This document shows, one piece after another, positions 160 to 42,198 of a stretch of DNA of 64,000 bases. Numbering within the stretch: position 1 is the first letter of the stretch; each line of letters opens with the position of its first letter. The notes below the pieces were generated by a model that ran no database searches, was not told where the DNA came from, and saw nothing but the letters and a program-made list of their open reading frames with translations. Both the position numbers and the translations under genes were made by a program. Origin of the DNA: an uncultured Gammaproteobacteria bacterium (GTDB lineage Bacteria > Patescibacteriota > Microgenomatia > Daviesbacterales > UBA10151); assembly GCA_964446685.1 (NCBI GenBank), contig CAYUPO010000001.1, positions 104,502-168,501 of the forward strand, written 5' to 3'.

Positions 160-675
160 TTATTTGTTTAAATATTTTTTATATCCTGCTTTTTCTAACT
201 TGGCATTTTTTTCTAAAACCATTTTCTCCAAATCTTTCATGTAATTATTTAACATGCTAGTTAGTTTTTCATCACTAGCAGCTAATATTTTTACTGCCAA
301 AAGTCCGGCATTTTTTGCTCCATTGATAGCAACAGTTGCAACTGGAATCCCAGGAGGCATCTGAACTATCGAATAAAGTGAATCTACTCCACTCAGTGTT
401 TTTGTCTGAACCGGTACTCCGATGACTGGTAAAGTTGTCAGTGATGCAACCATTCCTGGTAAATGAGCTGAGCCACCAGCTCCAGCGATAATTACTTTCA
501 ACCCTCTCTCCTGAGCTGATTGAGCATAGTCATACATCAGCTTAGGAGTCCGATGAGCTGAAACAATTTTTATCTCATATTCAACCCCAAACTCTTCCAG
601 CATTTCGGATGCCTCTTTCATAATCGGCAGATCAGAATCAGATCCCATGATGATACTTATAATAGGTTTATGCAT
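160..675 (-). CDS. purE: N5-carboxyaminoimidazole ribonucleotide mutase (PurE)
   Basis: 171 aa; [18 protein letters not shown] motif typical of class I PurE; adjacent to purK. Confidence 0.9.
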
Positions 676-767: not shown

Positions 768-1895
768 CTAAATGCTAATGTATTTCCTCGCTGCTCTGGC
801 TTTTTTCCAGGCGTCGTTAATACTTTTTCCAACGGCATTGATATGACCCATTTTTCTTTCTATTTTAGTTTCGGCTTTTCCATACAGATGAATAAATACC
901 CCAGGAATTGCCAGAGCCCTTTCCATCCCTTTAACTTCAGATGCACCTGACCTGGTTCCTAAAATATTGACCATCACCACTGATGGATATATTAACTCAG
1001 TTTTGCCCAAAGGCATACCGGTAATTGCCCGGATGTGTTGTTGGAATTGATTGGTGAGCGAAGCGTCCATCGTGTAGTGCCCACTGTTATGAACCCGGGG
1101 AGCTATTTCATTAACTATCACTTTTCCCTGCTTGGTAACAAACATTTCAATTCCAAAAATCCCTGCGCCTTTTAATACTTTCATAACTTCGGCTGCTGTT
1201 TCCTCAGATTTTTTTATAATATTTTTGGATACTCTGGCCGGAACAAAAACAGTATGACAGATATTATTTTTATGAACTGTTTCAACAACCGGATGAGTTT
1301 TTATTTCACCTTTGGTATTTCTGGCCACCATTACTGCAACTTCTTTGCTAAATGGAATCCAACCTTCAACATACAACGATTTACCATGAAGTTTTTTTAA
1401 AGCATAATCGATTTGAGTTTTGTTTTTGATTACCACATTTCCTTTTCCATCATAGCCCCCTACTCTGGCTTTTAAAACTAATGGATATCCCAGTTCTTCG
1501 GCTGCTTTTTCAATATCATCTTTGGTTTCAATCGCCATAAATGGAGCCACCGGAATTTTGTATTTCGTTAAAAATTGTTTTTGGATTAACTTATCTTTGA
1601 TTATTTCCAAAGTTTTAGCAGATGGGTTGACACTAATTCCTGATTTAGCCAGTTCATCCAGTAATACTGAATTAGCCAGTTCCCACTCGATGGTTAAAAA
1701 ATCAGATCTCTCAGCTAATGTTTTCATTGCTTTTGGATCATCCAGACTGGCCAGAATCTGTTTGTCTGCTACCTGACCGGCAGGAGAATTTGGCGTAGGA
1801 TCCAGCACAGTCACAAAAAAACCCAATTTTTTTGCTTCAAAAATCAACATCCGTGCTAACTGCCCTCCCCCAACTATTCCAATTCTATTTTTCAT
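768..1895 (-). CDS. purK: N5-carboxyaminoimidazole ribonucleotide synthase (PurK, ATP-grasp)
   Basis: 375 aa; IGIVGGGQLARM N-terminus, ATP-grasp core, overlaps purE operon partner. Confidence 0.9.
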   Translation of the reverse strand: MKNRIGIVGGGQLARMLIFEAKKLGFFVTVLDPTPNSPAGQVADKQILASLDDPKAMKTLAERSDFLTIEWELANSVLLDELAKSGISVNPSAKTLEIIKDKLIQKQFLTKYKIPVAPFMAIETKDDIEKAAEELGYPLVLKARVGGYDGKGNVVIKNKTQIDYALKKLHGKSLYVEGWIPFSKEVAVMVARNTKGEIKTHPVVETVHKNNICHTVFVPARVSKNIIKKSEETAAEVMKVLKGAGIFGIEMFVTKQGKVIVNEIAPRVHNSGHYTMDASLTNQFQQHIRAITGMPLGKTELIYPSVVMVNILGTRSGASEVKGMERALAIPGVFIHLYGKAETKIERKMGHINAVGKSINDAWKKARAARKYISI

Positions 1896-2541
1896 TGTTA
1901 ATTGATTGTATTATATCTGGAATTTCTCTTAAATCCTCAATAACATAGTCTGCCAAAGAGAAGTCGATTGTTTGATTATGAGTGCCTTTACGAGCTATAA
2001 GAATCATATTTGCAGACTTTGCTGCATTAAACCCATGAACTGAATCTTCAATTACTACTGATTCAATTGGACTGACATTTAATAAGTATGCCGCTTTTAA
2101 GAAAATTTCGGGATCTGGCTTTGACTTTTTTACCATAGTACCAAACATTTTTGCGTTAAAAAAATCTAATAAATTATTCCGGCTTAATACCGCTTCAGCA
2201 TATTTTTCTTCTGTTGATGTAGCTAATGCTTGTTTATACATTTTTGACAGTACATCCATTACTTCATATGCAAAAGAAATGGTACCTACTTTATTTACAA
2301 AATCTTCTTCTATTAGCTGATTGCGTGCATCCATTAATAAATCCAGATTAATCTTTTTTCCACTTTTTTTAATTACATCATTAAATTCTTCCTCAATCTT
2401 GGTACCCGAATATCTTTTTGTAATTTCTTCTGGAGTAATATTAATACCTGATGATTTCAGGGCTTGTGATTCAATCTGGGCATGAATATGTTCAGAATCT
2501 ATTAACACTCCATCCATATCCCAAATTATTGCTTTTATCAT
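1885..2541 (-). CDS. HAD-superfamily hydrolase (beta-phosphoglucomutase-like subfamily IA)
   Basis: 218 aa; IIWDMDGVLIDSE motif I; C-terminal GDxxxD-like motif. Confidence 0.6.
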   Translation of the reverse strand: MIKAIIWDMDGVLIDSEHIHAQIESQALKSSGINITPEEITKRYSGTKIEEEFNDVIKKSGKKINLDLLMDARNQLIEEDFVNKVGTISFAYEVMDVLSKMYKQALATSTEEKYAEAVLSRNNLLDFFNAKMFGTMVKKSKPDPEIFLKAAYLLNVSPIESVVIEDSVHGFNAAKSANMILIARKGTHNQTIDFSLADYVIEDLREIPDIIQSINNEK

Positions 2542-2584: not shown

Positions 2585-3988
2585 CTAAACAATTATTTTT
2601 CTTATTTTATTTACCAGTTTTTTTGCTCTTTGTGGTGCAGTTCCGAGATGGTTTGTGATCTGTAAACATTCGTTGATCTCGGGTGAAGAAAGGAACTGTT
2701 TAATGTATTTATCCTGAGTAATATTTTCTGCAAGTTCGTTTTTTTCTCCGTTTTGAATTTTATCCCATGAAGCTATGGCATAATCTCTGATCAGATGATG
2801 CATTTTTTGCCTGTCAGCGCCTTTTTTAACTGCTTTTAAAATAACTTCTTCAGTGGCAGTAAATGATGCAAATTTTTCTAAATTGTTTTTTACCTGAGTT
2901 GTATTGACGGTAAAATCTTTAGCAATTTTTTGTGATGAAGAAAGGATTTCATCAACGGCTAAAAACATTTCCGGCATATATGATCTTTTATTGGCTGAAT
3001 CATCTATTGTCCGCTCCAAAAGTGATAAAGCTGCATTGTCCCAGGCGTTTCTTTCAAGGGAAACAACTAATCTGGCCAAGGAACAAATTTGTTCTGACTT
3101 GATCGGATTTTTCTTAAAAGGCATCGCGGATGACCCAACCTGATTTTTGCCAAAAGGTTCAACCCATTCGCCAAAGCCTGCTGACTGGAGGACTCTAACA
3201 TCAAAAGCAAATTTATGCAGTGATTGAGCGATTGATGAAAGCAGTTGGGCAACTAAAGTATCAAATTTACGGGGAGATGTCTGACCGGCAATTAAAACCG
3301 GTTCTACTCCAAGATTTGTCATAATTTGTTTTTCAAAATCGGCTGATTCCTTTTCCCCAATTAACTTACTGTAACTAGCGGCTGTTCCAACAGCCCCTTT
3401 TAATCCTTTGGCTCTAAACTGTTTTTTGACAAATTCCAGATGCTCCAAGTCCAGCAATAAATCCTGAGCATACATCGCCAGACGATAACCAATAGTTGTT
3501 GGTTCAGCTGCCTGAAGATGGGTATAGGCTAAAGTTGGAGTTGTCAGATACTGATCGATTTTATCGGCAAAAATATTTAATAGCTCTTTTAGGCTTTTTT
3601 CAGTAATACTAAGCGCTTCCTGAACTCTAAGTGAATCAGTATTATCTACAATATCCATACTGGTTGCGCCAAGATGGATTTTACCTCCCCCTACTACTGC
3701 TTTCTCTGCAAATTCTCTGATTCCTGCGACAAGGTCATGGTGTGTTTCTTTTTCAATTTCAGAAATCCGATTTATATCAATGTTATTTTGATTCTTTTTA
3801 AGATCAGCGAGTTCTTTCTTTGAAACCAAACCAAATTTGGCCTGAGCAGTTGCTATTTCCACCCAGATTTTTCTCCATAACTGATATTTTCTTTCTTCTG
3901 AAAATATTTGTCTCATTGCTGCGCAGCCGTATCGCCAGGAGAAGGGGGATTGAAATGTAGAGTAATCAGTTTTCATTATTAACGACAT
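2585..3988 (-). CDS. purB: adenylosuccinate lyase (PurB)
   Basis: 467 aa; fumarate-lyase family signature GSSAMPFKKNP; overall PurB-like. Confidence 0.9.
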   Translation of the reverse strand: MSLIMKTDYSTFQSPFSWRYGCAAMRQIFSEERKYQLWRKIWVEIATAQAKFGLVSKKELADLKKNQNNIDINRISEIEKETHHDLVAGIREFAEKAVVGGGKIHLGATSMDIVDNTDSLRVQEALSITEKSLKELLNIFADKIDQYLTTPTLAYTHLQAAEPTTIGYRLAMYAQDLLLDLEHLEFVKKQFRAKGLKGAVGTAASYSKLIGEKESADFEKQIMTNLGVEPVLIAGQTSPRKFDTLVAQLLSSIAQSLHKFAFDVRVLQSAGFGEWVEPFGKNQVGSSAMPFKKNPIKSEQICSLARLVVSLERNAWDNAALSLLERTIDDSANKRSYMPEMFLAVDEILSSSQKIAKDFTVNTTQVKNNLEKFASFTATEEVILKAVKKGADRQKMHHLIRDYAIASWDKIQNGEKNELAENITQDKYIKQFLSSPEINECLQITNHLGTAPQRAKKLVNKIRKIIV

Positions 3989-4028
3989 TGCGAGAATGAG
4001 TCTTCGAATGACGAAGCAATCTCACAAC
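3985..4028. repeat. palindromic-element family member (CATTGCGAG...GACGAAGCAAT)
   Basis: shares the CATTGCGAG / CTCGCAATG core with 4154-4167. Confidence 0.4.
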
Positions 4029-4097
4029 ATTAAGTCAACCAAGTAACAAAGTTAATTCTTAGAAACAGATTGCCGCGCGTTAATTCTTAGTAATTTC

Positions 4098-4167
4098 GCT
4101 CGCCACGATCAGTTTCATGATTGTGGCTCGCCACGATCAGTTTCATGATTGTGGCTCGCAATGACGG
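4098..4167. repeat. 28-bp tandem direct repeat x2.5 (GCTCGCCACGATCAGTTTCATGATTGTG)
   Basis: two perfect units 4098-4125 and 4126-4153, then a partial third. Confidence 0.8.
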
Positions 4168-4171
4168 TTTC

Positions 4172-5278
4172 CTAACTCAGTATTAACTCAAGTTTATTTT
4201 GACCCACTGCCAGCTTGATTTCTTTTGCTACTCTTCTACCAACTGTAATCGGCTCACCGTATAAATATCCGGCATATGGGGTAGCTGAAATTCCCGGACT
4301 TCCCGGCATTCGGGGTGAAACATCAAAGACGACTATTTCTTTTTTTGGTGGACCAGGTAATATCATCGCCTGTAACCCAAATGGACCAATCACCCCTGGA
4401 TCTACATGTTTGGCTGCAGCGGCAACAAATCTTTCACCCATGGCAAATATATCTCCCAGTAAAGATTCTAAAACAGTGACTGCTATATGACCGGCTTCTT
4501 CGTATTTGACAGAAATACTTTGAATAACTTTTTCAATATCTACTCCAGGAATTTTGCTGAATCCTTCCAAATTAGTTTGTCTTCTGGTATCAGTGCCTGA
4601 GAGTTCAAGACGTTTAGTAATTGGAGAATAAAAATAATTAAAATTAACCTGTACCCCAACCAGAAACTCTTCAATCACTACTTTTTTAAGTTGCTCCTCT
4701 GTAAAATCTCCTCTTTCAAGTCTTAGTTCAACTTCTGACTGAAATTCTTTATAAGATGAGACAGTGAAAAAAGATCTTTCAAACCCTCTTTCCTGTTCCA
4801 GTACTTTGACCAGACATAATCTATCTATTTTTTTAGGATCGGTAAATTGTTTAGGGTAGCGAATTTTAGCTGCATCCAGTAAGTCATATTGATTTGGTTT
4901 GACTCCCCGTTCTTCAGTTTTGAGTAAAAATTTATTTCCAAACATCGGAACTTTAAACTTCTTTTCAATCGATGGATAGTCATTGAGATAGACCTCAAAT
5001 GATCTGTTGGGAACAAAGATGACATTTTTTTCTAACAGTTTTTTTTGAATATCAGGATTTAAAATATCTTTAAATTTTTCCAGTTCTAAAACCTCATCTA
5101 CACAACCTAATTCACCATTAGTTTTATAATGTTTACTGTAGACATCACCTCGGCCTTTTTGAGTAATAACCAGTGTTTTAAATCCTTCATCTTTGGCCCC
5201 TCTGGCAACATCTAAGGCAGAATGAGAACCAATAGAAGCAACTGTGATGTTTTGGCTGGTGTAAGATTTAAGATTCAT
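4172..5278 (-). CDS. purP: 5-formaminoimidazole-4-carboxamide ribonucleotide synthetase, archaeal-type (PurP), paralog 1
   Basis: 368 aa; N-terminal IGSHSALDV..GAKDEGF motif and ATP-grasp body match archaeal PurP. Confidence 0.7.
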   Translation of the reverse strand: MNLKSYTSQNITVASIGSHSALDVARGAKDEGFKTLVITQKGRGDVYSKHYKTNGELGCVDEVLELEKFKDILNPDIQKKLLEKNVIFVPNRSFEVYLNDYPSIEKKFKVPMFGNKFLLKTEERGVKPNQYDLLDAAKIRYPKQFTDPKKIDRLCLVKVLEQERGFERSFFTVSSYKEFQSEVELRLERGDFTEEQLKKVVIEEFLVGVQVNFNYFYSPITKRLELSGTDTRRQTNLEGFSKIPGVDIEKVIQSISVKYEEAGHIAVTVLESLLGDIFAMGERFVAAAAKHVDPGVIGPFGLQAMILPGPPKKEIVVFDVSPRMPGSPGISATPYAGYLYGEPITVGRRVAKEIKLAVGQNKLELILS

Positions 5279-5291
5279 GATTTACTAATTA

Positions 5292-5615
5292 TCAACTGCC
5301 CCCTACATCTGTCATTCTGGCTTGTCCAGAATCAAACAAAGTAGTATACAAATCGACCATTTCTGGATTCAAACTTTCTATCATTTTAAGTTTATTATCC
5401 CTATTCATATTTTTTATTTGTTTTTCCCGGATAATTCCTTCTATCTGTCCTTCAACAACTTCATAGTACAAAAGCTTATGCAAATGATACTTCCTAGTAA
5501 ATCCATCTACCAATTCTTCTTTATGCTCAGTAACTCTTTTTATTAAGTCACTTGTGACACCTGTATACAATGTAGGTCTATTATTACCCATAATGTAAAC
5601 ATACATCTGTTTCAT
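5292..5615 (-). CDS. GIY-YIG nuclease family protein (COG2827/YhbQ-like URI domain)
   Basis: 107 aa; YVYIMGNNRPTLYTGVTSDLIKRVTEH = GIY-YIG core; bracketed by inverted repeats 5311-5333 / 5624-5690. Confidence 0.7.
   Translation of the reverse strand: MKQMYVYIMGNNRPTLYTGVTSDLIKRVTEHKEELVDGFTRKYHLHKLLYYEVVEGQIEGIIREKQIKNMNRDNKLKMIESLNPEMVDLYTTLFDSGQARMTDVGGS
5311..5333. repeat. left inverted repeat flanking GIY-YIG gene 1 (GTCATTCTGGCTTGTCCAGAATC)
   Basis: reverse-complement halves found at 5624-5635 and 5680-5690. Confidence 0.65.
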
Positions 5616-5623
5616 CTTGTTTA

Positions 5624-5690
5624 GATTCTGGACAGATATTTTTAAGGCTAAGTTAATTCCAATCTAAACAATTAAGGTAGCCAGAATGAC
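5624..5690. repeat. right inverted repeat flanking GIY-YIG gene 1 (GATTCTGGACAG ... GCCAGAATGAC)
   Basis: RC of the left-repeat halves, split by a ~44-bp spacer. Confidence 0.6.
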
Positions 5691-5696
5691 AAATGG

Positions 5697-6725
5697 TTAA
5701 TTTAATATAAGTTCAAGTTTTTTCTGTTCGATAGCCCTCTTGATCTCTCTGGCTATTCTTCTTCCGGTACTCATTGGTTCATCATAATTTAAATCAGAAT
5801 AAGAGCTGCCATTGGTAAACAAATTAGTTCCGGCGACTATCCGGCAGGAAATTTCCATCGCCACAAATTTTTGATCTGGTGTTATAACAGTTTCCAAGCA
5901 AAATGGACCAAACAAGCCTTTTTTATCGATTAATTCTTTTGATGAACGAATAACTGACTCTCCCATAGCATAAGCTTCAGGTAAAAGGGATTCTCTTAGT
6001 ACTAGTGGACTATTGCCTACAACAACATAGCTTGGATCAATGTCTAATCCTTCCTGTCCGTGAAGCGGGATTCTGCCTAATCCATCAACATTGGTTTCAT
6101 ATCGTCTGTCCATCGACATTATTTCTATTTCTCCTGTCAGTGGAGAATGGAAGTAATGAATATAAAGTGTTACACCAATTACATATTCCTGAATAATAAA
6201 TTCATCAGTTTTGAGACTTTTTATTTTTTTAAGGAAATCTTCTTTATCACGAGCATAAAAATAACCTTTTCCTCCAGCTGCACCATATGTTTTTACAATT
6301 ACCGGATAGGTCACATCATCTAAATCATCAAATTGTTTTGGCATTGGTATTCTGGCATGAAGCAACCACTCCCTTTGCATTCCTCTATCCCCTTCCCAGT
6401 CCAGGACAGCTTTATTACCAAAATAAGGAATAGACAATTTTTTGTTGTTTTCAGTACCAAGATAAGCCACAAATGAACCATGAGGAACTAAAATGATATT
6501 TTGTTTAAGAAGCTGCTTTTCAACTTTTTTAAACTGACTAAAATGAGGAACAGTTAAAATAGTATCGATAAATTTAAACCGCTTGTAGAAAGACTCCCTT
6601 TCATGGGTCGTAACAATCAGTGTTTTAAAACCTTCTTGTTTAGCTCCATGCAGAATCTGAAGAGAAGAATGCGAACCCAAAGTTGCAATAGTGTAATCAC
6701 TAAATTTCATTGTATTGTGAAACAA
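5697..6725 (-). CDS. purP: archaeal-type FAICAR synthetase (PurP), paralog 2
   Basis: 342 aa; TLGSHSSLQILHGAKQEGF motif; ~40% identical to paralog 1 by eye, so an old duplication. Confidence 0.7.
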   Translation of the reverse strand: MFHNTMKFSDYTIATLGSHSSLQILHGAKQEGFKTLIVTTHERESFYKRFKFIDTILTVPHFSQFKKVEKQLLKQNIILVPHGSFVAYLGTENNKKLSIPYFGNKAVLDWEGDRGMQREWLLHARIPMPKQFDDLDDVTYPVIVKTYGAAGGKGYFYARDKEDFLKKIKSLKTDEFIIQEYVIGVTLYIHYFHSPLTGEIEIMSMDRRYETNVDGLGRIPLHGQEGLDIDPSYVVVGNSPLVLRESLLPEAYAMGESVIRSSKELIDKKGLFGPFCLETVITPDQKFVAMEISCRIVAGTNLFTNGSSYSDLNYDEPMSTGRRIAREIKRAIEQKKLELILN

Positions 6726-6845
6726 ATTGAAAAGATCAAAGAATTATAGATAACACCTCGAATAGTTTCAAGAGACTTTTCAATATATTGTATAGCTTAT
6801 AAAGTCCGATTTGTCCAGATGATATATTGATGCAACAACAATTCA

Positions 6846-7409
6846 TTGGTAAACTCAGCTCTAACAATGACTGAATTACCTGAAAGAAGAACAATCTATA
6901 TTGGTGAAAGAGCCGTAGATACAGCTTTAATCATAGAAGCTTCAGATTCGTTACTCGATTGCAATTTACAGGTAGTAGATGCCTTGCAACAAAATTTATC
7001 AATTATTAATCCTGGACTTGATACCAGACCTGAAAGTTTTGCTGTTCGACAAGCCTTAGATAAAATATCTCTCGGTGAAAAATTACGCAAGCGTTGGAAA
7101 AAAGATGAAGTTGCCTTAGTAAGACTGCTGGTAGAGTCCGGAATACATACTCATCCTGCTAAAATTTGGGATAAAATTCTGCATATCTTTCCTTATGCCA
7201 GAGAACTTCCGAGAAAGGACGATGCAGAAAATTTTCTTAATTCAAGAAAGGCAAGTATTCAAGTTATTCAATCACCAGCTATGAAATACCGATTAGGAAG
7301 TCTGAAAACTGCCGGCTTTACTATGGTTCAAAATACGATTTTGCGAGGCGCAATGCAAACCCAAACTTACATGTTACCAACTCATCCCGGAAGATTTAGT
7401 CCCAACTAA
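6846..7409 (+). CDS. hypothetical protein
   Basis: 187 aa ORF, no recognisable motif. Confidence 0.4.
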   Translation: MVNSALTMTELPERRTIYIGERAVDTALIIEASDSLLDCNLQVVDALQQNLSIINPGLDTRPESFAVRQALDKISLGEKLRKRWKKDEVALVRLLVESGIHTHPAKIWDKILHIFPYARELPRKDDAENFLNSRKASIQVIQSPAMKYRLGSLKTAGFTMVQNTILRGAMQTQTYMLPTHPGRFSPN

Positions 7410-7424
7410 TTAATAGCTACAGTT

Positions 7425-8996
7425 TTATTCCCATTCCATAGTTGCGGGAGGCTTTGTTGTTATATCATAAACTACTCTATTAACTTCTGTTACTTCGGTT
7501 ACTATTCTGTTTGAAATTTTCATTAATAATTCAAATGGTAAATTAGCTACATCTGCACTCATGGCATCTTTAGCATCCAGAGCTCTTAAGGCAATTGTTT
7601 CTCCATAAACTCTTTGATCACCTCTGACACCGGTTGTTTTGATGTTTGTAAAAATAGCAAAAGCCTGCCAGAGTTTGTCCTGCAATTTGGCTTTTAAAAT
7701 CTCTTCCTGGACTATAAAATCCGCTTGCCTTAAAATCTCTAAATTATAGTCAGTGACAGCTCCAATGATTCTAACTGCAAGGCCTGGACCTGGGAATGGC
7801 TGTCTTTTAACCACTGAATCCGGCATTCCCAGCAATTTACCAACCTGTCTGACTTGATCTTTATAAAAAAGCCGCAAAGGCTCAATTAGGGCCAGTTTCA
7901 TGACTTCTGGTAGCCCACCAACATTGTGATGGGACTTTATATTCTGAGAATGTTTGGTTCCCTGACTTTCTATCACATCTGGATAAATTGTGCCCTGGAC
8001 TAGAAATGTGGCACCAATCTTTTTGGCTTCTCTGTCAAAGATATCTATGAATGTTTTACCAATAATTTTTCTTTTGGTTTCCGGATCAACTACTCCTTTT
8101 AAGGCAGATAGAAATTCTTTTTTGGCATTAATGATCTGCACTTTCATGTGATAATGGTCTTTAAAAACTTTTTTCAAAACATCAGTTTCTCCTTTTCGCA
8201 TTAGTCCTGAATCAATATAAAAAGAAGTAAGCTTGGTTCCGATTGCCCGATGAACTAAGAGAGCAGCAACTGATGAATCGACTCCGCCGGATAAAGCGCA
8301 GATCGCTTTTTCATTACCAACCGACTCTTTAATATCTTCAATCATTTCAGCTACATATTTTTTATTTAAGGGAGATAACTCTGGTTTTAAACCACAGATT
8401 TTTAGAAAGTTGGATAAAATTGTTTCACCAAATTGGGTATGCACTAACTCTGGATGAAACTGAATACCAAAAAGTTTTCTTTTTTCATCTGACATAGCAG
8501 CCACAGGAATAGTTTTGGTAGTGGCATTTGTGACAAATCCTTTTGGTGGTTTCATTACTGAATCTCCATGCGACATCCAGACATTAAATTCCTCAGATGT
8601 TCCTTCAAATAAAGAATTTGCTTTTGATACCTTTCCTACATTTGATACCTTTAAATTAGCTGGCCCATACTCCCGTATTTTCCCTGGTTTTACATCTCCT
8701 TTTAAAAGGTGTGCCATCAGTTGCTGCCCATAACAAATCCCTAAAATTGGAATACCTAATTTAAATACCTCTTCAGAAATAGTTGGACTATCTTTTTCAT
8801 AAACAGAAGACGGCCCTCCTGAAAAAATAATCCCCATAACGTCATTCCCGCGACCTGTACTGAGCGAAGTCGAAGTAAAGCGGGAATCTAAATCAATATT
8901 CTCTGGCAAAATAATTTTTGTCTTCACCCCAAATTCATTTATTCTCCGGGAAATCAGATGTGTTGATTGTGAACCAAAATCGATAATTATTATCAT
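7425..8996 (-). CDS. guaA: GMP synthase, glutamine-hydrolysing (GuaA), carrying a 48-bp in-frame palindromic-element insertion
   Basis: 523 aa; GATase CYGQQ, FHPE, PP-loop SGGVDSSV; extra DSRFTSTSLSTGRGND encoded by repeat at 8841-8888. Confidence 0.9.
   Translation of the reverse strand: MIIIIDFGSQSTHLISRRINEFGVKTKIILPENIDLDSRFTSTSLSTGRGNDVMGIIFSGGPSSVYEKDSPTISEEVFKLGIPILGICYGQQLMAHLLKGDVKPGKIREYGPANLKVSNVGKVSKANSLFEGTSEEFNVWMSHGDSVMKPPKGFVTNATTKTIPVAAMSDEKRKLFGIQFHPELVHTQFGETILSNFLKICGLKPELSPLNKKYVAEMIEDIKESVGNEKAICALSGGVDSSVAALLVHRAIGTKLTSFYIDSGLMRKGETDVLKKVFKDHYHMKVQIINAKKEFLSALKGVVDPETKRKIIGKTFIDIFDREAKKIGATFLVQGTIYPDVIESQGTKHSQNIKSHHNVGGLPEVMKLALIEPLRLFYKDQVRQVGKLLGMPDSVVKRQPFPGPGLAVRIIGAVTDYNLEILRQADFIVQEEILKAKLQDKLWQAFAIFTNIKTTGVRGDQRVYGETIALRALDAKDAMSADVANLPFELLMKISNRIVTEVTEVNRVVYDITTKPPATMEWE
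8841..8888. mobile_element. 48-bp palindromic element inserted in-frame in guaA
   Basis: GTCATTCCCGCG...CTGAGCGAAGTCGAAG...GCGGGAATC; exactly 16 codons. Confidence 0.7.
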
Positions 8997-9523
8997 AAAT
9001 TATTTAAAATAAACTCCATTCTTTTTTCCGATTTCATAACAGGTACCCTGACAACCGTGTGACCATATTTTATATATGTTTCCTCTAATAAGCTATCTAT
9101 CTCTTTTGCTTCTTCTGCAGTCTCTGTTCTGGAATAATCTTTTGAGTATTGCAATAAATCAAAGATAAATACTTTTTTATATTTACTTAGTTTGGCAATT
9201 TCAGATAACTCATACTCATCTGTTATCCCACATTTTTTCAAATACGCAATGGAATCATGCATCCCCCTATCAAAAAAAATCATTTCATTCTTAGACAAAG
9301 ACTTTTCAAGTTGAATTTTTAAATTTACCTGAGCTTTTTGGAATTCAATTTCATTTTCTCTAATCTGTTCCAGAGTTCTACCTTTTTTCAACTCTTGATC
9401 AATTAGTTTTCTAGCAACCTCTTCAGTAATTTTAAACCCTTTTTTGCTTAATAATTTAAGCACTGTGGTTTTGCCTGATGATGGAGGACCTGTTATCACA
9501 TACCAATTATTCTGACTATTCAT
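8993..9523 (-). CDS. P-loop NTPase / predicted small kinase (AAA_28-like)
   Basis: 176 aa; Walker A GPPSSGKTT. Confidence 0.5.
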   Translation of the reverse strand: MNSQNNWYVITGPPSSGKTTVLKLLSKKGFKITEEVARKLIDQELKKGRTLEQIRENEIEFQKAQVNLKIQLEKSLSKNEMIFFDRGMHDSIAYLKKCGITDEYELSEIAKLSKYKKVFIFDLLQYSKDYSRTETAEEAKEIDSLLEETYIKYGHTVVRVPVMKSEKRMEFILNNL

Positions 9524-10468
9524 TTATGTGGTGTAAACACTTTTCCTGCCTACTTTCTGTCTTAATATTTGTCCTAAAACATGCCAGTTGCTAAAACTAA
9601 ATGAATTGACTCCTTTTGGAGGAGTTGCAACTTCTTGGTAATTTCCAAATAGTACATTCCCAGCAACAGCCATCTGACCATCTTTTACAGGGTCATCTCC
9701 AAAGTATATTACTTTATCAGCATGTTCATGAATTAAAGAAAGATCTAAGTCATCATGTGGGAAACCGGGTAAATCAAGCCATCTCCTTACTGCTAGTGCT
9801 AAAGAGAAGGGTGATGGCTTAACTATATTCTTACCATCAAGTGAAGAGACACCTCTAATGTCATCTTCTGACACAATAATATCTGGTTGAGACAATCCAT
9901 GTTTTTTAAATGTTTCTTCAATAAATAATTCATGACCTGAGGAAATATTTGCCGTTGTAATCGGGACACCTTCTTTTTTTAGATCATCGACAGTTTTCCA
10001 AAAATCAACAAATCCTCTACAAGGGCGTGGCCAAATATCTTTTTCAGATAATTTCATACCTATTTGGGGCATCATACTTCTTTGCTTTTGTCTAACAAAT
10101 ATTTCAGTCAATGCTTCCGTAGTTAATGGTTTTGTTAAATCCAATTCATACCCTTTTCCAACTGGCACATAACCATCTAGTAGCTCTAAGTTCTGGTGAG
10201 CGAATTCACCTGCTAAATTAACCAATTTAGCATTATTTCTTGCTGAAGAACCAGTAACAAGTGCTTTAACCACTTCGCTTGGGGCTCGGTTACGTAATCC
10301 ACCTTGAGCTAAATAAAGATTTAATCCCATTTTGCCAAACATCCTCTCAACAGTTTGTTCATAAGCTACTGGCACACTGGCAATCCCCGGCGCCATCTCG
10401 CTAGTCCTAAACTGGGTATTATCAAAATCAAACGCCAGTAATAATCCTTCAGGGGAATGGCGTTTCAT
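9524..10468 (-). CDS. HAD-like hydrolase (putative phosphatase)
   Basis: 314 aa; motif I FDFDNT, motif IV FGDDPVKD. Confidence 0.45.
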   Translation of the reverse strand: MKRHSPEGLLLAFDFDNTQFRTSEMAPGIASVPVAYEQTVERMFGKMGLNLYLAQGGLRNRAPSEVVKALVTGSSARNNAKLVNLAGEFAHQNLELLDGYVPVGKGYELDLTKPLTTEALTEIFVRQKQRSMMPQIGMKLSEKDIWPRPCRGFVDFWKTVDDLKKEGVPITTANISSGHELFIEETFKKHGLSQPDIIVSEDDIRGVSSLDGKNIVKPSPFSLALAVRRWLDLPGFPHDDLDLSLIHEHADKVIYFGDDPVKDGQMAVAGNVLFGNYQEVATPPKGVNSFSFSNWHVLGQILRQKVGRKSVYTT

Positions 10469-13400
10469 TTATTTAAAGTAGTTTACTCCGTTCCTGAATA
10501 TTTGTAAGCCAGGACCTTCAACTGGTAAATCTTTTCCATCTCTTTTGAGTTGTTCTTTGATAAGTGGCCAATTTGGTAATTGAGTGAAAAACATTGCTCT
10601 TTCAGGATGTGGCATCAGGCCAATGATCCTGCCTGTTTCATCTGTGATCGCAGCAATATCTTCAACTGCCCCATTTGGATTAGCTGGTAAATTTAGATAA
10701 TTACACATTTCACCTTTAAAATATCTGAGTGCCACCAATCCTTTCTGATTTATCATTTCTAAAGTTTCGTCCTCAGCATAAAATTTACCTTCGCCATGGG
10801 CGATCGGACAGGAAAAAGTATCTACATCTTTGACCCAGGGACTGTTTCCTTCAGCTTTCAGGTCCACCCATCTGTCGGTATAGGTAGCATTATCATTGTG
10901 CAAAATAGCAACCTGCTTTTGACCATATTTTTTATCAACCGCCGGAAAAAGTCCCAGATTTGCTAGGACCTGACAACCATTGCAGATACCGATAACAAGC
11001 CTATCCAGACTGATAAACCGCTCTAAATCTTCCCATAAATTGTTTTTTAATTTATTGGCAAAACCATTTCCGGAACCGGTATCATCACCAAAAGAAAACC
11101 CGCCTGGAATTGCTAAAATCTGATAATTTTTCAATAATTTTTTATTAGCTATCAGATCATTAATATGCAGGATATCAGCTTTTCCTCCAACTTTTTCAAA
11201 AGCTGTTTTAGTTTCCATCTCACAGTTGATTCCGTAGCCTGTCAGAACAGCAGCTTTTGGTGTAATTGCTGAACTTTGATGAGCAAAAGTTGATTTGTAC
11301 GATGAATACATCTGATCCAATGGAAGATCAACTATCTCTTCACTTGCAACTCCTTTGATTTTAACTTTCTTGTTTTGGGTAACAGATCCTAGAAAGCTGA
11401 TAGGGAGATCTTTAAATAAAGACTCAAACTGCGGTTTATTTTTTGGATCAATACTGACTAATATTCGGCCAGCTGATTCAGAAAATAAAAGAGTCTGATT
11501 ATTGCCTGTAATATTTTCCAAAGAAATATCAATTCCCAGTTGTCCGGCGAGGGCCATTTTTGATAGAGCAATTATTAATCCGCCACGGGTAACACTGACA
11601 CTGCTGGCTAATAAATTATTTTTAATTGACTGATGTAATACCTGATAAAGTTTTTTGTTTCGGTCAATATCCACATCAGGCAATGAATTGCCGGGTGCAA
11701 ATTCATTATTTTTTTCTGAAAGATATTGATAGTACTCCGAGCCACCTAAGATATCTTTTGTTTCACCCAACAGGTATATCAGATCACCTGGTATTTTAGC
11801 GTCCATTGAGACCACTTTTGTGACATCTTCGATAACCGAAATGGAAGATATTACAAGGGTTGGAGGGACTGAGATTTTGACAGCATTACCTGATTCGTCA
11901 AATCCTTTGAAATCATTAAACATGCTGTCTTTTCCGGATATAAACGGCGCGCCATATCCAACTGCCGCATCATAACAACCTTTAGCAGCCAGTTTTAATT
12001 GTCCGAGTCTTTCTTCTTCAAAGGATGAACACCAGCAGAAATTATCCAGCAAAGCAATTTTATCCGGATCTGCACCAACAGAAACTAAGTTTCTGACAGC
12101 TGTATCTACTGAAATAAGCGCCATTTGGTAGGGATCTATCTCGGAATAACCTGGGAAAAGTGCCTGAGAAACAGCAGCCCCTTTTAATGAATCAGGCAGC
12201 GGCTTGATAACTGATGTTTCTCCATTTACTCTCCCTCTCCCCTGGAGGGGTTTCAGTACTGTCATGGATTGGACCTCATGGTCATACTGAGTGGAAATAA
12301 ATTCAAAACTAGTGATATTAAGTCTTTTAACCAGATCAACTGTAACCTCGTTATAATCACTGACATCAGGAATAACCGGATTTTTAAAATCCGGCTTAAT
12401 CCATTTTGAAGTTAACTGTCTTTCAGGCAGGCCATCATGCAAAAATTCAAGATTAATATCCAAAATCTTTTTTGAATCCAGAAAAACTTCACATTTTCCG
12501 GAATCTGTAAATTCCCCGATTGCAGTGGCTTCAACTCCTCTTTGTTCAAGAAGCAATTTAAGCTGCTGCCATTTATCCTGCGGAACTGCCAATGTCATTC
12601 TTTCCTGTGATTCAGAGATCCAGATCTGCCATGGATCAAGCCCGGGATATTTTAGAGGCACTTTTTCTAAATCAACTCGACAGCCGCCGGATTCTTTTGC
12701 CATCTCAGCTACTGAACAAGATAAACCACCGGCGCCATTGTCAGTAATACTGTGATATAGCTCCTGAAATACGGCTTCTTTACTCAAGGCATCTGAAAAC
12801 TTTTTTTGAGTGATCGGATCCCCAATCTGAACAGCCGTTGAAGGAGAACCACTATCTAAAGCTTCCGAAGAAAAAGTAGCTCCATGTATCCCGTCAAGTC
12901 CGACTCTGCCCCCTAACATGACAACCAGATCTCCGGGTCTGGCTTTTTTCTGAAACGATTTTTTGCCATTTATCTCTCGTTGAATCAACCCTAAAGTCCC
13001 GACAAAAACTAATGGTTTTCCTTTGTATCTGTCATCAAAATAAATAAATCCCTGAGTAGTCGGTATTCCAGATTGGTTTCCTCCTGAATTAACACCGGCG
13101 ATCACCCCATCCATAATTCTTTTGGGAGATAACATCGCCTGGGTCAGCCCGCTATCTTTAAACAAAGGTTTATGATCATCCGGATCAGCGAAACAAAAAC
13201 CATAAGTATTCAAAATTGGCCTTGCTCCCATGCCAAAACCAAGTGCATCTCTGTTTACTCCGACAATTCCTGTAATTGCACCACCAAATGGATCAAGCGC
13301 TGATGGGGTGTTATGAGTTTCGACTTTGTGAGTTATCAGATACTGATCATCAAAGGCAATAGCACCTGAGTTGTCTGTAAAAACTGAAACACAAAAGTCA

Positions 13401-14239
13401 TTATCACCTTTTTGTTTGCGGATTTTCTCAGTGGCTTTTTTAATAAATGTTTTATACAAACCCTCTGGTACATCATCATCCATTGGGGACGCAAAGATTG
13501 TATGTTTACAGTGTTCCGACCAGGTCTGAGCTAAAGATTCTAATTCAATATCTGTTGGATTTCTTTTTAATTTTTTGAAATATTTCTGAATAGTTTTCAT
13601 ATAAAGCAGATCAAGTGCCAAAGGGCCCCGTCTGGTACCATCCTGGTTGGCAATTCCTTCTTTGCCGATTTTGGTTAATTCTGCATCGGAAACATTTAAA
13701 TCAACTTCACTGACCTGAGCTTTTGTTGTTAAAGTTACTTTTGGCACAATCAAATCCATTCCCTGATCTTTTTTATATTGCTGACTATCTTTTAAATGAA
13801 CTCTCTGAATAATTGGATTAATCAAACTTTCAGCCAACTGCTTAATTTCTCCATTTCCTCCATTTGTTCTGAAAAAAATTAATTGAGAAGTATAGACATT
13901 TTCGCCCTCAATAAACTTTATTTTTAATAAGTCTTCAATTATTTCTTTGGTGGTATGGGCAACATTATCTGTTACTCCCGGAAGAAAACCAATTTCAACC
14001 GCATAATCTGCTCCGTTCATTTCTGAGTTATTTAAAGAAATTTTTTGAGTTAAAGGATTTGTTAGGGCTGATGTTATTTTGAGTATTTGTGAAGAATTAA
14101 ATTCTTTATCAATCGTATATACATCAATAACCTGAGCATCTGAAACTAAAAGCCCTGGAAAAACTGCTTGAATTTTTTGGACAAAATGTGATGCTCTTGA
14201 ATCTGGTACTTTCGAGGAAACCTCTAGACGTCGCGCCAT
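10469..14239 (-). CDS. purL: phosphoribosylformylglycinamidine synthase, large single-chain form (PurL with fused glutaminase domain)
   Basis: 1256 aa; FGAM synthetase AIR-synthase-like repeats plus C-terminal class-I GATase (GICNGCQ, HGEG, MPHPER). Confidence 0.9.
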   Translation of the reverse strand: MARRLEVSSKVPDSRASHFVQKIQAVFPGLLVSDAQVIDVYTIDKEFNSSQILKITSALTNPLTQKISLNNSEMNGADYAVEIGFLPGVTDNVAHTTKEIIEDLLKIKFIEGENVYTSQLIFFRTNGGNGEIKQLAESLINPIIQRVHLKDSQQYKKDQGMDLIVPKVTLTTKAQVSEVDLNVSDAELTKIGKEGIANQDGTRRGPLALDLLYMKTIQKYFKKLKRNPTDIELESLAQTWSEHCKHTIFASPMDDDVPEGLYKTFIKKATEKIRKQKGDNDFCVSVFTDNSGAIAFDDQYLITHKVETHNTPSALDPFGGAITGIVGVNRDALGFGMGARPILNTYGFCFADPDDHKPLFKDSGLTQAMLSPKRIMDGVIAGVNSGGNQSGIPTTQGFIYFDDRYKGKPLVFVGTLGLIQREINGKKSFQKKARPGDLVVMLGGRVGLDGIHGATFSSEALDSGSPSTAVQIGDPITQKKFSDALSKEAVFQELYHSITDNGAGGLSCSVAEMAKESGGCRVDLEKVPLKYPGLDPWQIWISESQERMTLAVPQDKWQQLKLLLEQRGVEATAIGEFTDSGKCEVFLDSKKILDINLEFLHDGLPERQLTSKWIKPDFKNPVIPDVSDYNEVTVDLVKRLNITSFEFISTQYDHEVQSMTVLKPLQGRGRVNGETSVIKPLPDSLKGAAVSQALFPGYSEIDPYQMALISVDTAVRNLVSVGADPDKIALLDNFCWCSSFEEERLGQLKLAAKGCYDAAVGYGAPFISGKDSMFNDFKGFDESGNAVKISVPPTLVISSISVIEDVTKVVSMDAKIPGDLIYLLGETKDILGGSEYYQYLSEKNNEFAPGNSLPDVDIDRNKKLYQVLHQSIKNNLLASSVSVTRGGLIIALSKMALAGQLGIDISLENITGNNQTLLFSESAGRILVSIDPKNKPQFESLFKDLPISFLGSVTQNKKVKIKGVASEEIVDLPLDQMYSSYKSTFAHQSSAITPKAAVLTGYGINCEMETKTAFEKVGGKADILHINDLIANKKLLKNYQILAIPGGFSFGDDTGSGNGFANKLKNNLWEDLERFISLDRLVIGICNGCQVLANLGLFPAVDKKYGQKQVAILHNDNATYTDRWVDLKAEGNSPWVKDVDTFSCPIAHGEGKFYAEDETLEMINQKGLVALRYFKGEMCNYLNLPANPNGAVEDIAAITDETGRIIGLMPHPERAMFFTQLPNWPLIKEQLKRDGKDLPVEGPGLQIFRNGVNYFK

Positions 14240-33781: not shown

Positions 33782-34513
33782 TTAGCCTTTCGGATACTGG
33801 GCGATGGCTAGACGTTTAGCTTCAGCGAGATGATATTCTTCTCCGGGAAGAATTAATCTTTGTGTCCGATATATCGGATTTATTTCTCCGGTTTTTTCAA
33901 CATGATCCCAAAACGCTTTATTTTGCTGTCTTTCCACTTCTTTAACTCGTTGCTGCAATGATTCTGGGGTGTCATTTGGTTCAATCTTAACCAGTGAGGC
34001 TGCGACTACCATTCCTTTATCATATTCTTCAGTTACCTGATGCAAACAGACTTCAGTATAGTCAAAAGGTCGGTTAATCCGCTTTTTAAAAATCAGGACA
34101 GCTGCATGCACTGCCAATCCATGCATTCCCACTCCACCAAAATCTTCATACCCTGGATCAAGGGGGGCTGGATGAGAGTTAATGATTTTTCCATTAAACT
34201 GTTTTATCACATTAATAGGAGTCATGACCGACCAGCCATTTTGAGAAATATAATTGATATCATAAATCCTAAAAGTTGCTAGAAGTGATTGACCATATTT
34301 AAGCCTGGTTGCTTCCTGATCGATTTCACCATTCTCTTTATAGACCAGGTAATCCCTTTTTGGCAGCACAATACAATCTAATTTATGCTCTGAAGCACGC
34401 TCTTTGACCGGTGCTTTTTCATTGTTGGTGATCAACAAATCAGCCTTGTCAAATAACGGCTCACCTGTTGAACCTGATCCTGAAGCTAAGATGGCTAAAT
34501 GAAAATTACTCAT
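33782..34513 (-). CDS. purN: PurN-like formyltransferase (phosphoribosylglycinamide formyltransferase family)
   Basis: 243 aa; LAILASGSGS N-terminus, INSHPAPL (catalytic Asn/His), downstream Asp; C-terminal extension. Confidence 0.55.
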   Translation of the reverse strand: MSNFHLAILASGSGSTGEPLFDKADLLITNNEKAPVKERASEHKLDCIVLPKRDYLVYKENGEIDQEATRLKYGQSLLATFRIYDINYISQNGWSVMTPINVIKQFNGKIINSHPAPLDPGYEDFGGVGMHGLAVHAAVLIFKKRINRPFDYTEVCLHQVTEEYDKGMVVAASLVKIEPNDTPESLQQRVKEVERQQNKAFWDHVEKTGEINPIYRTQRLILPGEEYHLAEAKRLAIAQYPKG

Positions 34514-34552: not shown

Positions 34553-35371
34553 TTAAGAATTCTTGGCAGATTGAACAACGTTTCTTAGTAAACAGGCGAT
34601 TGTCAGAGGGCCAATGCCTCCAATTGTCGGACAAAATAGCTTGGCTTTTTCCGCAATTGCTTCCTCATCTAAGTCACCGACTGTTTTACTATTCTCATCT
34701 TTACTGACACCAACACCAATTATATAAGCCCCTTTTTTAATATTCTGGGCATTAATAATATGCTTTTTGCCGGTAGCAGAGATAATAACATCTGAGGACT
34801 GGATAATACCATCTGGGTTTTGGGTTTGGGAATGGATCAAGTTTGAGGGGAATCTTTTTGTTAAAAGCATTTCCCTGATCGGTCCACCCGCAGTCTTCCC
34901 TCTGCCTAAAACTGTTATATTTTTTCCTTTAAGGAAATTTTCAGCTTTATCAAATCCTTCAATTCGGGCAAACTCAGTTAGCATCTCCCAAACGGCGGCG
35001 GCTGTAGCAGGCATAAATGGAGCATCAAATTTAAAACCATCAACATCTTTTTTTGAATTAACTGCTTTGGATAACTCTTTAAAATCCCAGCTTACAAAAA
35101 TTGGAAACTGAATAATAATCCCGCTGACTGTTTTATTTAATTTAAGAATCAATGGCAGAACCTGATCTTTCTGATCTTCACTAAATTGATGCAAAGTGGC
35201 AGCAATTCCAATTTCTCCGGCTCTGGCTAGTTTATTTTCGACATAGAGACGGGATGCAGAATTGTTGTTTGCTAAAATGATAGCTAACTTTGCCTGAAGC
35301 TGGTCTTCCGCTATTTCAAGTTTCAGTGCATTTAAAATTGAATCAGCTAGTGGTTTTCCGGATACTTTCAT
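34553..35371 (-). CDS. folD: bifunctional methylenetetrahydrofolate dehydrogenase/cyclohydrolase
   Basis: 272 aa; VLGRGKTAGGP and GGIGPLT motifs. Confidence 0.85.
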   Translation of the reverse strand: MKVSGKPLADSILNALKLEIAEDQLQAKLAIILANNNSASRLYVENKLARAGEIGIAATLHQFSEDQKDQVLPLILKLNKTVSGIIIQFPIFVSWDFKELSKAVNSKKDVDGFKFDAPFMPATAAAVWEMLTEFARIEGFDKAENFLKGKNITVLGRGKTAGGPIREMLLTKRFPSNLIHSQTQNPDGIIQSSDVIISATGKKHIINAQNIKKGAYIIGVGVSKDENSKTVGDLDEEAIAEKAKLFCPTIGGIGPLTIACLLRNVVQSAKNS

Positions 35372-41928: not shown

Positions 41929-42198
41929 ATGAGTAGCTGGAAATGGTTTGTGTATATTTTAGAATGTCAGGATGGAAGTTATTACACTGGATTAAGTTAT
42001 AGATATGATCAGCGATATGAACAGCATTTATCTGGATTGGGAGGTAAATACACAGCTAACCATGGAGTTAAAAAATTAGTATATGTTGAGGAATATGATA
42101 ACTTCGAGGAAGCTAAGTTAAGAGAAAACCAGATCCATGGATGGACAAGAAAAAAGAAAGAAAACCTAATAATAGGCAAATGGACAAAATGGCAATAG
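41929..42198 (+). CDS. GIY-YIG nuclease family protein (COG2827/YhbQ-like), second copy
   Basis: 89 aa; WFVYILECQDGSYYTGLS...QH core; bracketed by perfect 16-bp inverted repeat CTGAGCGAAGTCGAAG (41867-41882 / 42222-42237). Confidence 0.7.
   Translation: MSSWKWFVYILECQDGSYYTGLSYRYDQRYEQHLSGLGGKYTANHGVKKLVYVEEYDNFEEAKLRENQIHGWTRKKKENLIIGKWTKWQ

Follow-up and report, generated by a model that had tools for sequence, protein, structure and literature searches.

A PurP II- and PurP III-type gene pair in the purine operon of a Daviesbacteria-like bacterium

A stretch of 64,000 nucleotides (contig CAYUPO010000001.1 of assembly GCA_964446685.1, positions 104,502 to 168,501; referred to here as the window) from a Microgenomates/Daviesbacteria-like bacterium of the candidate phyla radiation (CPR) was found to carry two ATP-grasp genes of the PurP family within its purine operon. 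The encoded proteins, PurP-A and PurP-B, were assigned by their sequences to the classes PurP II and PurP III, respectively, and relatives of the two genes lie side by side in bacteria as well as in archaea. With moderate confidence we favor the reading that the pair carries out a coupled two-protein step, in which 5-aminoimidazole-4-carboxamide ribonucleotide (AICAR) would be converted to 5-formamidoimidazole-4-carboxamide ribonucleotide (FAICAR) at the expense of formate and ATP, and possibly further to inosine monophosphate (IMP). In the window the two genes are separated by a small GIY-YIG gene, which was inserted recently.

Four groups of PurP have been distinguished in archaea: PurP I (MJ0136), PurP II (cluster Ib of Brown; PF1517), PurP III (cluster II of Brown; PF0421) and PurP IV (TK0431) (PMC3261824, PMC6486802). 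FAICAR synthetase activity has been demonstrated only for MJ0136. PF1517 binds ATP and AICAR, yet it is inactive alone, and PF0421 was likewise reported to be inactive alone (PMC6486802, PMC3261824). In archaea PurP II and PurP III always co-occur, as found in 61 operational taxonomic units (OTUs) (Cruz 2019, PMC6486802). The PurP II/III pair itself is thus already known from archaea, and the window provides a further, bacterial example.

Results

Membership of both proteins in the PurP family

An earlier sequence-only reading of the window had described two PurP-family ATP-grasp open reading frames (ORFs) on the minus strand, and the Pfam, NCBIfam and structure matches agreed with this description. 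Both proteins contained the domains DUF1246 and DUF1297 in N-to-C order and at full length, with 147 and 227 bits for PurP-A and 134 and 187 bits for PurP-B. The E-values ranged from 1e-39 to 1e-67, and the scores were far above the gathering cut-offs. Generic ATP-grasp models of Pfam matched PurP-A below threshold and did not match PurP-B. All NCBIfam PRK13278 models (formate--phosphoribosylaminoimidazolecarboxamide ligase) matched both proteins. The equivalog cut-offs were missed by PurP-A (389 vs 580 bits, NF009779) and by PurP-B (278 vs 556 bits, NF009780), and both proteins are, by these scores, divergent from the curated archaeal equivalogs. The N-terminal motif GSHS..GAK.EGF was present in both proteins in the alignment. 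Their identity to each other was 33% over 368 columns, lower than the approximately 40% estimated in the sequence-only reading.

Among the solved structures, PurP-A matched PF1517 (2r84) with 347 bits and MJ0136 (2r7k) with 321 bits, and the best match of PurP-B was MJ0136 with 230 bits. Taken together, the matches of both proteins to solved PurP structures spanned 152-347 bits. No solved structure of the PurP III class was present among the PDB matches to PurP-B. The PurP fold was judged from a model in the case of PurP-B and from the sequence in the case of PurP-A. The AlphaFold2 model of PurP-B had a predicted local distance difference test score (pLDDT) of 91.7 and a predicted template modeling score (pTM) of 0.90, and in Foldseek it reached template modeling (TM) scores of 0.87-0.90 with the Methanocaldococcus jannaschii PurP (2r7k/l/m). 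The TM scores to other ATP-grasp families were about 0.5-0.6, the values for PurT (2dwc, 2czg), PurK (3v4s, 3orq) and PurD being about 0.55. A PurT- or PurK-like identity, which the sequence-only reading had considered as the alternative, was ruled out by these scores and by the matches to the PurP structures.

The active-site residues were taken from Brown 2011 and are given in MJ0136 numbering. The formyl contacts His27 and Arg314 are kept in PurP-A (H19, R295) and in PurP-B (H19, R323), as are the contacts to the AICAR phosphate, Ser94 and Ser266 (S84 and S246 in PurP-A, S93 and S272 in PurP-B).

Assignment to the classes PurP II and PurP III

Two features are diagnostic of cluster II: His always stands in the place of Asn258, and instead of the (K/R)GG(K/R)G loop there is one that is poor in glycine and longer by two residues (Brown 2011, PMC3261824). 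PurP-A has Asn238 at the position of Asn258 and the loop GAAGGKGYF in a segment of 15 residues; in its P-loop, AGGKG, an Ala stands where the motif has Lys or Arg first. PurP-B has His264 at the position of Asn258. Its loop, EQERGFERSFF, is charged, contains no GG and lies in a segment of 17 residues, compared with 15 in classes I and II; the class III consensus of this loop is E..RgfERAFF. As both Asn258 and the GG loop are missing, PurP-B is not regarded as a member of PurP I or PurP II.

The same signatures were counted in 154 proteins from the window and from 80 related loci. All 73 A-type proteins had Asn and a GG loop of 15 aa, and all 81 B-type proteins had His and an ER loop of 17-18 aa. 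Among 76 family representatives, the correlation between the loop and residue 258 was consistent in the 72 with intact loop regions. In neighbor-joining distance trees PurP-A grouped with PF1517, and the split between the A and B types was recovered in 200 of 200 bootstrap replicates; internal support was otherwise weak, only this split and a few clades being robust. The loci themselves gave the same picture, with one gene per class in the window and in 76 of the 78 loci that could be evaluated. By these comparisons PurP-A is classified as PurP II-type and PurP-B as PurP III-type, the latter on the published diagnostics and on DPANN and other representatives rather than on an alignment with PF0421.

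Occurrence and arrangement of the gene pair

A scan of the GTDB species genomes with a 10-sequence alignment yielded at least 600 stretches encoding relatives of PurP-B, and the best 80 loci were analyzed. In an exhaustive search the family comprised 557 clusters at 50% identity among 1.84 billion representatives. The bacterial members of the best 80 loci belonged to the Microgenomates (Davies-, Woese-, Roizman-, Gottesman-, Levy- and Curtissbacteria), Saccharibacteria, Peregrinibacteria, Dependentiae and Chloroflexota (Anaerolineae, Caldilineae, Ardenticatenales), and the remainder to DPANN archaea and Methanosarcinales.

In 76 of 78 evaluable loci, which come from two domains, the B-type gene had a directly adjacent A-type gene in the same orientation; of the four loci without an adjacent A-type gene, two are cut by a contig end and were not counted. 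The spacer had a median of about 35 nt, and the genes overlapped in some loci, for example as TAATG, formed by the A stop and the B start, in locus L001. All bacterial loci and many of those from DPANN have A before B, and in ten archaeal loci B comes first. Other purine genes were present beside the pair in 63 of the 80 loci, typically with purB directly downstream. The typical order in Microgenomates was purL-(guaA)-A-B-purB-(HAD)-(purK)-purE, the succession A-B-purB being kept in most of their loci, and in eight loci purA was located between A and B.

The pair was also kept in strongly reduced genomes, namely those of Saccharibacteria (L049-L057, L068) and Dependentiae (L036, L041) and at many DPANN loci. 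Often only guaA, purA or purB was present nearby, or there was no purine gene within 10 kb, a hint that the pair may serve the salvage of AICAR (ZMP) to IMP and not a full de novo pathway. One protein of 727 aa (P0423, from a single ENA contig of 7512 nt) consisted of an ATPase-like N-terminal region of about 390 aa and an A-type PurP that shares 70% identity with PurP-A. Either the gene was called wrongly or the protein is a rare fusion; as an A-B fusion it was rejected because the ATPase-like region is unrelated.

Conservation of residues in PurP-B

Across the 81 B-type proteins, H27, K156, E199/E200, R228, N232, E265/S266, Q297, D310, S312 and R314 are conserved. Q297 and D310 are presumably the positions of the Mg ligands of ATP-grasp enzymes. 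The changes specific to class III are G159E, G162R, H210N, Y229R, E230Q, N258H, E310D, the replacement of DGGTN (316-320) by PGSPG, and L331Y; each is conserved in at least 93% of the B-type proteins and most in 100%. PurP II is distinguished from PurP I by the swap E199Q/Q297E, and PurP III retains the PurP I residues at these two positions.

PurP-A retains the canonical AICAR/ATP site (Asn258, Tyr229/Glu230 and the GG P-loop), and PurP-B retains the core together with the formyl and phosphate contacts (His27, Lys156, Glu199, Arg228, Ser266, Gln297, Arg314). The mean distance was 0.59 for the B type vs 0.68 for the A type, i.e. the B type evolves more slowly. As the core residues are invariant, evolution is slower than in A and a PurP fold is confidently predicted, PurP-B is a constrained partner, probably one that binds a ligand, and not a decayed copy. 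The residue pattern of A and B as a whole reads as that of two specialized sites under selection.

Origin of the pair

The bacteria formed a single clade neither among the A-type nor among the B-type sequences of the tree, and the branching of the A half and that of the B half ran parallel. The Microgenomates grouped with Anaerolineae, the Peregrinibacteria branched separately, and in both halves the Saccharibacteria fell among Nanoarchaeia and Woesearchaeota. In a mirror-tree comparison the A-A and B-B distances between the same genomes were correlated with r=0.70, the maximum among permutations being 0.16. Because of this correlation, the parallel halves and the bootstrap support of the A|B split, the duplication is older than all sampled lineages, and A and B have been exchanged together between archaea and bacteria, probably on more than one occasion. 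How many transfers there were, and in which direction, is not fixed by the trees, as their internal nodes are weak.

The GC content of the PurP genes matches that of their surroundings, and the pair occupies the same operon position across the six Microgenomates groups named above. Recent horizontal transfer of the pair was ruled out on these two grounds. A recent or dual acquisition from archaea, followed by divergence within this lineage in which one copy took on a new substrate, is very improbable. It would agree with the literature, in which PurP is described as archaea-only, and with the interleaving of bacterial and DPANN sequences in the trees, but the A|B split is older than the sampled lineages, there is one gene of each class per genome, the operon arrangement is shared without a GC anomaly, and the two topologies are parallel with correlated distances. 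The horizontal acquisition suggested in the sequence-only reading therefore holds as far as transfer between the domains is concerned, as the bacteria are polyphyletic, but not as a recent import. Its proposal of an old local duplication or a dual acquisition gives way to a single unit of PurP II and PurP III orthologues, as indicated by the adjacency of the genes, the parallel trees and the correlation of distances. Similarly, any sub-functionalization would predate this lineage, since the classes PurP II and PurP III are older than the sampled lineages.

The GIY-YIG gene between PurP-A and PurP-B

In the window a segment of 418 nt (5279-5696) replaces the A/B spacer of related loci. In L001, L081 and L082, the PurP proteins of which are 92-96% identical, A and B overlap or are 68-75 nt apart with no gene between them, and a homologue of the GIY-YIG gene was found in none of the 80 related loci. 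The A/B spacer of the relatives is a GATTTAA-rich repeat. That the pair is interrupted by a repeat-flanked GIY-YIG gene had been stated in the sequence-only reading and was borne out by the Pfam match and by two nested inverted repeats, I1 (17 nt, 94%) and I2 (19 nt, 84%). A pattern search with the 19-nt arm gave 2 matches, compared with 0.05 expected by chance. The right arms of the two repeats are contiguous (17 + 19 nt) and the left arms are split by 44 nt, with a perfect 11-nt hairpin (5617-5627/5661-5671) between them.

In its architecture the cassette resembles a small mobile element or one of the homing type, for which the A/B spacer would have been the target. Because the genes overlap or are 68-75 nt apart without a GIY-YIG gene in the close relatives, the insertion is recent and lineage-specific; it breaks the translational coupling of A and B. 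A promoter-like hexamer pair at 5315-5288, inside the 3' end of the GIY-YIG gene, might drive PurP-B, and such matches were no commoner than in shuffled sequence. A second GIY-YIG-like stretch at 41941-42171 on the plus strand showed 29% identity over 77 aa to the protein encoded at 5292-5615 (E=1e-5), which suggests that several copies of this type of gene are scattered in the genome.

Locus, host and neighboring genes

The features of the locus are listed in Table 1. The genes purE, purK, purB, large purL and guaA were named from their translations and from the positions that they keep at related loci. Read along the minus strand, the order is purL, the gene of a 314-aa protein, an AAA_28 gene, guaA, a spacer of 700 nt, PurP-A, the GIY-YIG gene, PurP-B, purB, a HAD gene, purK and purE. 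The bacterial purine operon with purE, purK, purB and large purL, as recognized in the sequence-only reading, was confirmed by the ORFs, the synteny and the domains of the orthologues.

Table 1. Features of the PurP locus and of related genes in the window
Feature	Position	Strand	Remarks
purE	160-675	-	ORF; L082 orthologue with AIRC domain; synteny
purK	768-1895	-	ORF; L082 orthologue with PurK_C/ATP-grasp; synteny
HAD-superfamily hydrolase	1885-2541	-	Pfam HAD_2, E=4e-27; between purB and purK
purB (adenylosuccinate/SAICAR lyase, makes AICAR)	2585-3988	-	ORF; L082 orthologue with Lyase_1 + ADSL_C; directly downstream of PurP-B
PurP-B, PurP III-type ATP-grasp (Brown cluster II, PF0421-like)	4172-5278	-	368 aa; DUF1246 + DUF1297
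GIY-YIG nuclease-family gene	5292-5615	-	107 aa; Pfam GIY-YIG, E=5.4e-11; exactly at the PurP-A/PurP-B junction
Nested inverted repeat, right arm	5306-5341		I1 5306-5322 and I2 5323-5341; within the 3' end of the GIY-YIG ORF
Nested inverted repeat, left arms	5616-5695		I2 5616-5634 and I1 5679-5695; upstream of the GIY-YIG gene
PurP-A, PurP II-type ATP-grasp (Brown cluster Ib, PF1517-like)	5697-6710	-	337 aa from ATG at 6710
Promoter-like TTGAAA-17-TATAAT	6743-6771	-	11/12, consensus match only; just upstream of PurP-A
guaA (GMP synthase)	7425-8996	-	L081/L082 orthologues with GATase + GMP_synt_C; upstream of PurP-A
AAA_28 P-loop protein	8993-9523	-	between the 314-aa protein and guaA
314-aa protein without assigned family	9524-10468	-	between purL and the AAA_28 gene
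Large (fused) purL	10469-14239	-	L081 orthologue with FGAR-AT_linker, AIRS, AIRS_C, GATase_5
PurN-like formyltransferase	33782-34513	-	Pfam Formyl_trans_N, E=1e-12
folD	34553-35371	-	THF_DHG_CYH domains

The ORF of PurP-A as called mechanically extends over 5697-6725 on the minus strand (342 aa, TTG start). The true start is probably the ATG listed in Table 1, because an orthologue with 93% identity has 337 aa. The number of promoter-like sites around the PurP pair was not above the expectation from shuffled sequence. No regulatory RNA, such as a ZTP riboswitch, was found near the pair, as there was no Rfam match at the gathering threshold in the whole window; at E<=1 the region 3900-7500 gave one match at chance level.

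The host is a Microgenomates/Daviesbacteria-like CPR bacterium. Bacterial markers in the window are trigger factor, RRF, EF-Ts, S2, DnaX, RecR and YbeY, and the nearest homologues of PurP-A and PurP-B were named Candidatus Daviesbacteria, Microgenomates or Patescibacteria. No rRNA or tRNA was found in the window. Of folate enzymes, the window encodes the PurN-like formyltransferase and FolD, both already pointed out in the sequence-only reading, as well as SHMT, DHFR and ThyA. The genes purH, purO, purC, purM, purA, purD and purF were not found within the 64 kb of the window.

The spacer between guaA and PurP-A (6726-7424), where the closest relatives have only about 45-66 nt, resembled none of the related loci, either as DNA or in translation. 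It contains an ORF of 187 aa with a TTG start on the opposite strand (6846-7409), which had no Pfam or NCBIfam match. The spacer may be a second lineage-specific insertion or the remnant of one. The 314-aa protein has an N-terminal DxDxT-like motif, FDFDNT, and had no Pfam or NCBIfam match. Its gene and the AAA_28 gene occur together in purine operons in the window (8993-10468), in L005 (6143-7597, Daviesbacteria) and in L054 (16765-18055, Saccharimonadales), but not in the closest relatives L081 and L082; they may form an accessory pair of nucleotide metabolism, for example a phosphatase and a kinase. The HAD_2 gene overlaps the start of purK by 11 nt. It is also present between purB and purK in L001, L013 and L017 and absent in L082. 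Its product may act as a nucleotidase in connection with intermediates of the purine pathway. An ORF of 347 aa at 52114-53157 on the plus strand gave a sub-threshold match to thymidylate synthase (18.9 bits) and adjoins thyA (50519-51361) and a dCTP-deaminase-like gene (51453-52127). It may encode a divergent paralogue of the ThyA type within a cluster of pyrimidine and folate genes (DHFR, thyA, dcd, tmk, pyrG).

Discussion

According to the reading favored here, PurP-A and PurP-B would be co-transcribed from the purine operon, PurB would supply AICAR, and the two PurP proteins together would convert it to FAICAR with formate and ATP and possibly carry FAICAR on to IMP. They may form a hetero-oligomer in which neither is sufficient alone, as has been speculated for archaea (Cruz 2019, PMC6486802). 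Such a hetero-oligomer would explain the inactivity of each Pyrococcus furiosus protein alone. The GIY-YIG gene would be a small mobile-type cassette recently put into a formerly tightly coupled junction, with no role in the enzyme.

Several points weigh against this reading. No activity has been shown for any PurP II or PurP III protein, alone or together (PMC6486802, PMC3261824). Twelve of the 80 loci (L002, L003, L004, L006, L007, L008, L012, L023, L028, L031, L032 and L043, mostly of Daviesbacteria type) contain a full-length purH (511 aa, AICARFT_IMPCHas + MGS), which directly adjoins the PurP II and PurP III genes or stands between them; among the 33 loci that have at least 6 kb on both sides there are 9 such cases. 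On simple pathway logic the pair is not needed for AICAR formylation there. Two loci, L072 and L074, carry a B-type gene without an adjacent A-type gene. No natural A-B fusion was found in the exhaustive search of representatives or with a concatenated A+B query, the listed matches of which were all at least 387 aa long, so that the selection of candidates may be biased by length; there is thus no Rosetta-stone support for an interaction. In the organism of the window, the folate enzymes and the PurN-like gene mean that a formate-dependent route is not forced, and the GIY-YIG insertion has physically uncoupled the two PurP genes. The apparent redundancy of purH and the PurP pair is the same puzzle as that noted for Methanosarcinales.

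The main rival explanation, which is considered rather unlikely, is that PurP-A alone is the FAICAR synthetase and that PurP-B is a FAICAR-to-IMP cyclase replacing PurH2 or PurO. His258 would then be the general base that closes the ring, possibly aided by an activation driven by ATP. Such a cyclase was a speculation of Brown, and archaea with two PurP-like genes tend to lack purO and purH2 (Brown 2011, PMC3261824). Likewise, neither purH nor purO is present in the window, and in loci without purH, none of ten unassigned ORFs of about 160-230 aa next to the pair, which were inspected by eye only, was recognized as similar to PurO or to a stand-alone IMPCH. PurP-B also retains the phosphate and formyl contacts and always alters the residue contacting the carboxamide and the P-loop. 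However, purH, purJ or purO accompanies the pair in 24 of the 61 archaeal OTUs (Cruz 2019, PMC6486802), the purH genes adjoining the pair in the 12 loci have an intact-looking IMPCH (MGS) domain, and PF1517, a PurP II, had no FAICAR synthetase activity alone (PMC6486802, PMC3261824). It also seems unlikely that the pair is an obligate two-component enzyme from AICAR to IMP, in which PurP II formylates with formate and ATP and PurP III closes the ring by means of His258 and its remodeled loop. If this were true, it would identify the IMP cyclohydrolase that has long been missing from Pyrococci, Crenarchaeota, DPANN archaea and many CPR bacteria, and the inactivity of the single P. furiosus proteins would be explained.

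A role of PurP-B as a non-catalytic pseudoenzyme, which would regulate or stabilize a hexamer of catalytic PurP-A as a scaffold, is thought to be quite unlikely. The glycine-rich ATP loop has been lost in PurP-B, PurP III was considered to be perhaps non-catalytic (Zhang 2008, as cited by Cruz 2019, PMC6486802), and the weak interface between the trimers of PF1517 prompted the idea of a heterohexamer (PMC6486802). These points are opposed by the invariance or near-invariance of H27, K156, E199/E200, S266, Q297, D310 and R314 in the 81 B-type proteins, a conservation as is typical where selection acts on an active site or on one that binds a ligand. Moreover, the loop that replaces the ATP loop has an invariant Glu-Arg of its own, and B is more conserved than A.

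In comparison with known proteins, PurP-A resembles PF1517 (PDB 2r84-2r87) in the domains DUF1246 and DUF1297, in Asn258, the GG P-loop and Q199/E297, and like PurP II it is paired with a PurP III-type gene. It differs from PF1517 in its occurrence in a bacterial-type operon of a CPR bacterium and in the Ala, instead of Lys or Arg, at the first position of the P-loop. PurP-B shares with PF0421 His258, the longer, glycine-poor and charged loop and the occurrence as one copy beside a cluster Ib partner; the difference is its bacterial host. The fold of MJ0136 (PDB 2r7k-n) is the same, as judged from the TM scores of the PurP-B model and the 321 bits of PurP-A, and the contacts His27, Arg314 and Ser266 are conserved in both proteins. 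MJ0136 is a homo-oligomer encoded by a single-copy gene, and neither protein of the window falls into its clade; PurP-A deviates from it by E199Q/Q297E, and PurP-B by the P-loop, H210N, Y229R, E230Q, N258H, E310D and residues 316-320. PurH, the bifunctional AICARFT/IMPCH enzyme that is the usual bacterial solution, serves the same pathway step or steps, but its fold is unrelated and it depends on 10-formyltetrahydrofolate. A purH gene was found neither in the window nor at the orthologous position of the operon in the closest relatives.

PurP has been published as archaea-only (Cruz 2019, PMC6486802). The sequence-only reading had also called it characteristic of archaea, in agreement with the literature; this statement no longer holds, as the pair was found in several bacterial phyla. 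A literature search revealed no report of PurP in CPR, Patescibacteria or Chloroflexi and no biochemistry of PurP II or PurP III after 2019. These bacterial proteins are already named in public annotations. What is new is the breadth of the bacterial occurrence, the near-universal adjacency of A and B across the domains and the explicit list of class-specific residues.

The bacterial pair removes PurP from the signature genes of archaea, and its tight linkage in several bacterial phyla strengthens the case for PurP II and PurP III working together. Many organisms have the pair without any known IMP cyclohydrolase. In reconstructions of CPR and DPANN metabolism, the B-type protein is often labeled only as a DUF1297 domain-containing protein, and purine synthesis may for this reason be scored as incomplete. 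The mesophilic bacterial versions should be easier to co-express and to test in purH mutants of E. coli than the hyperthermophilic ones.

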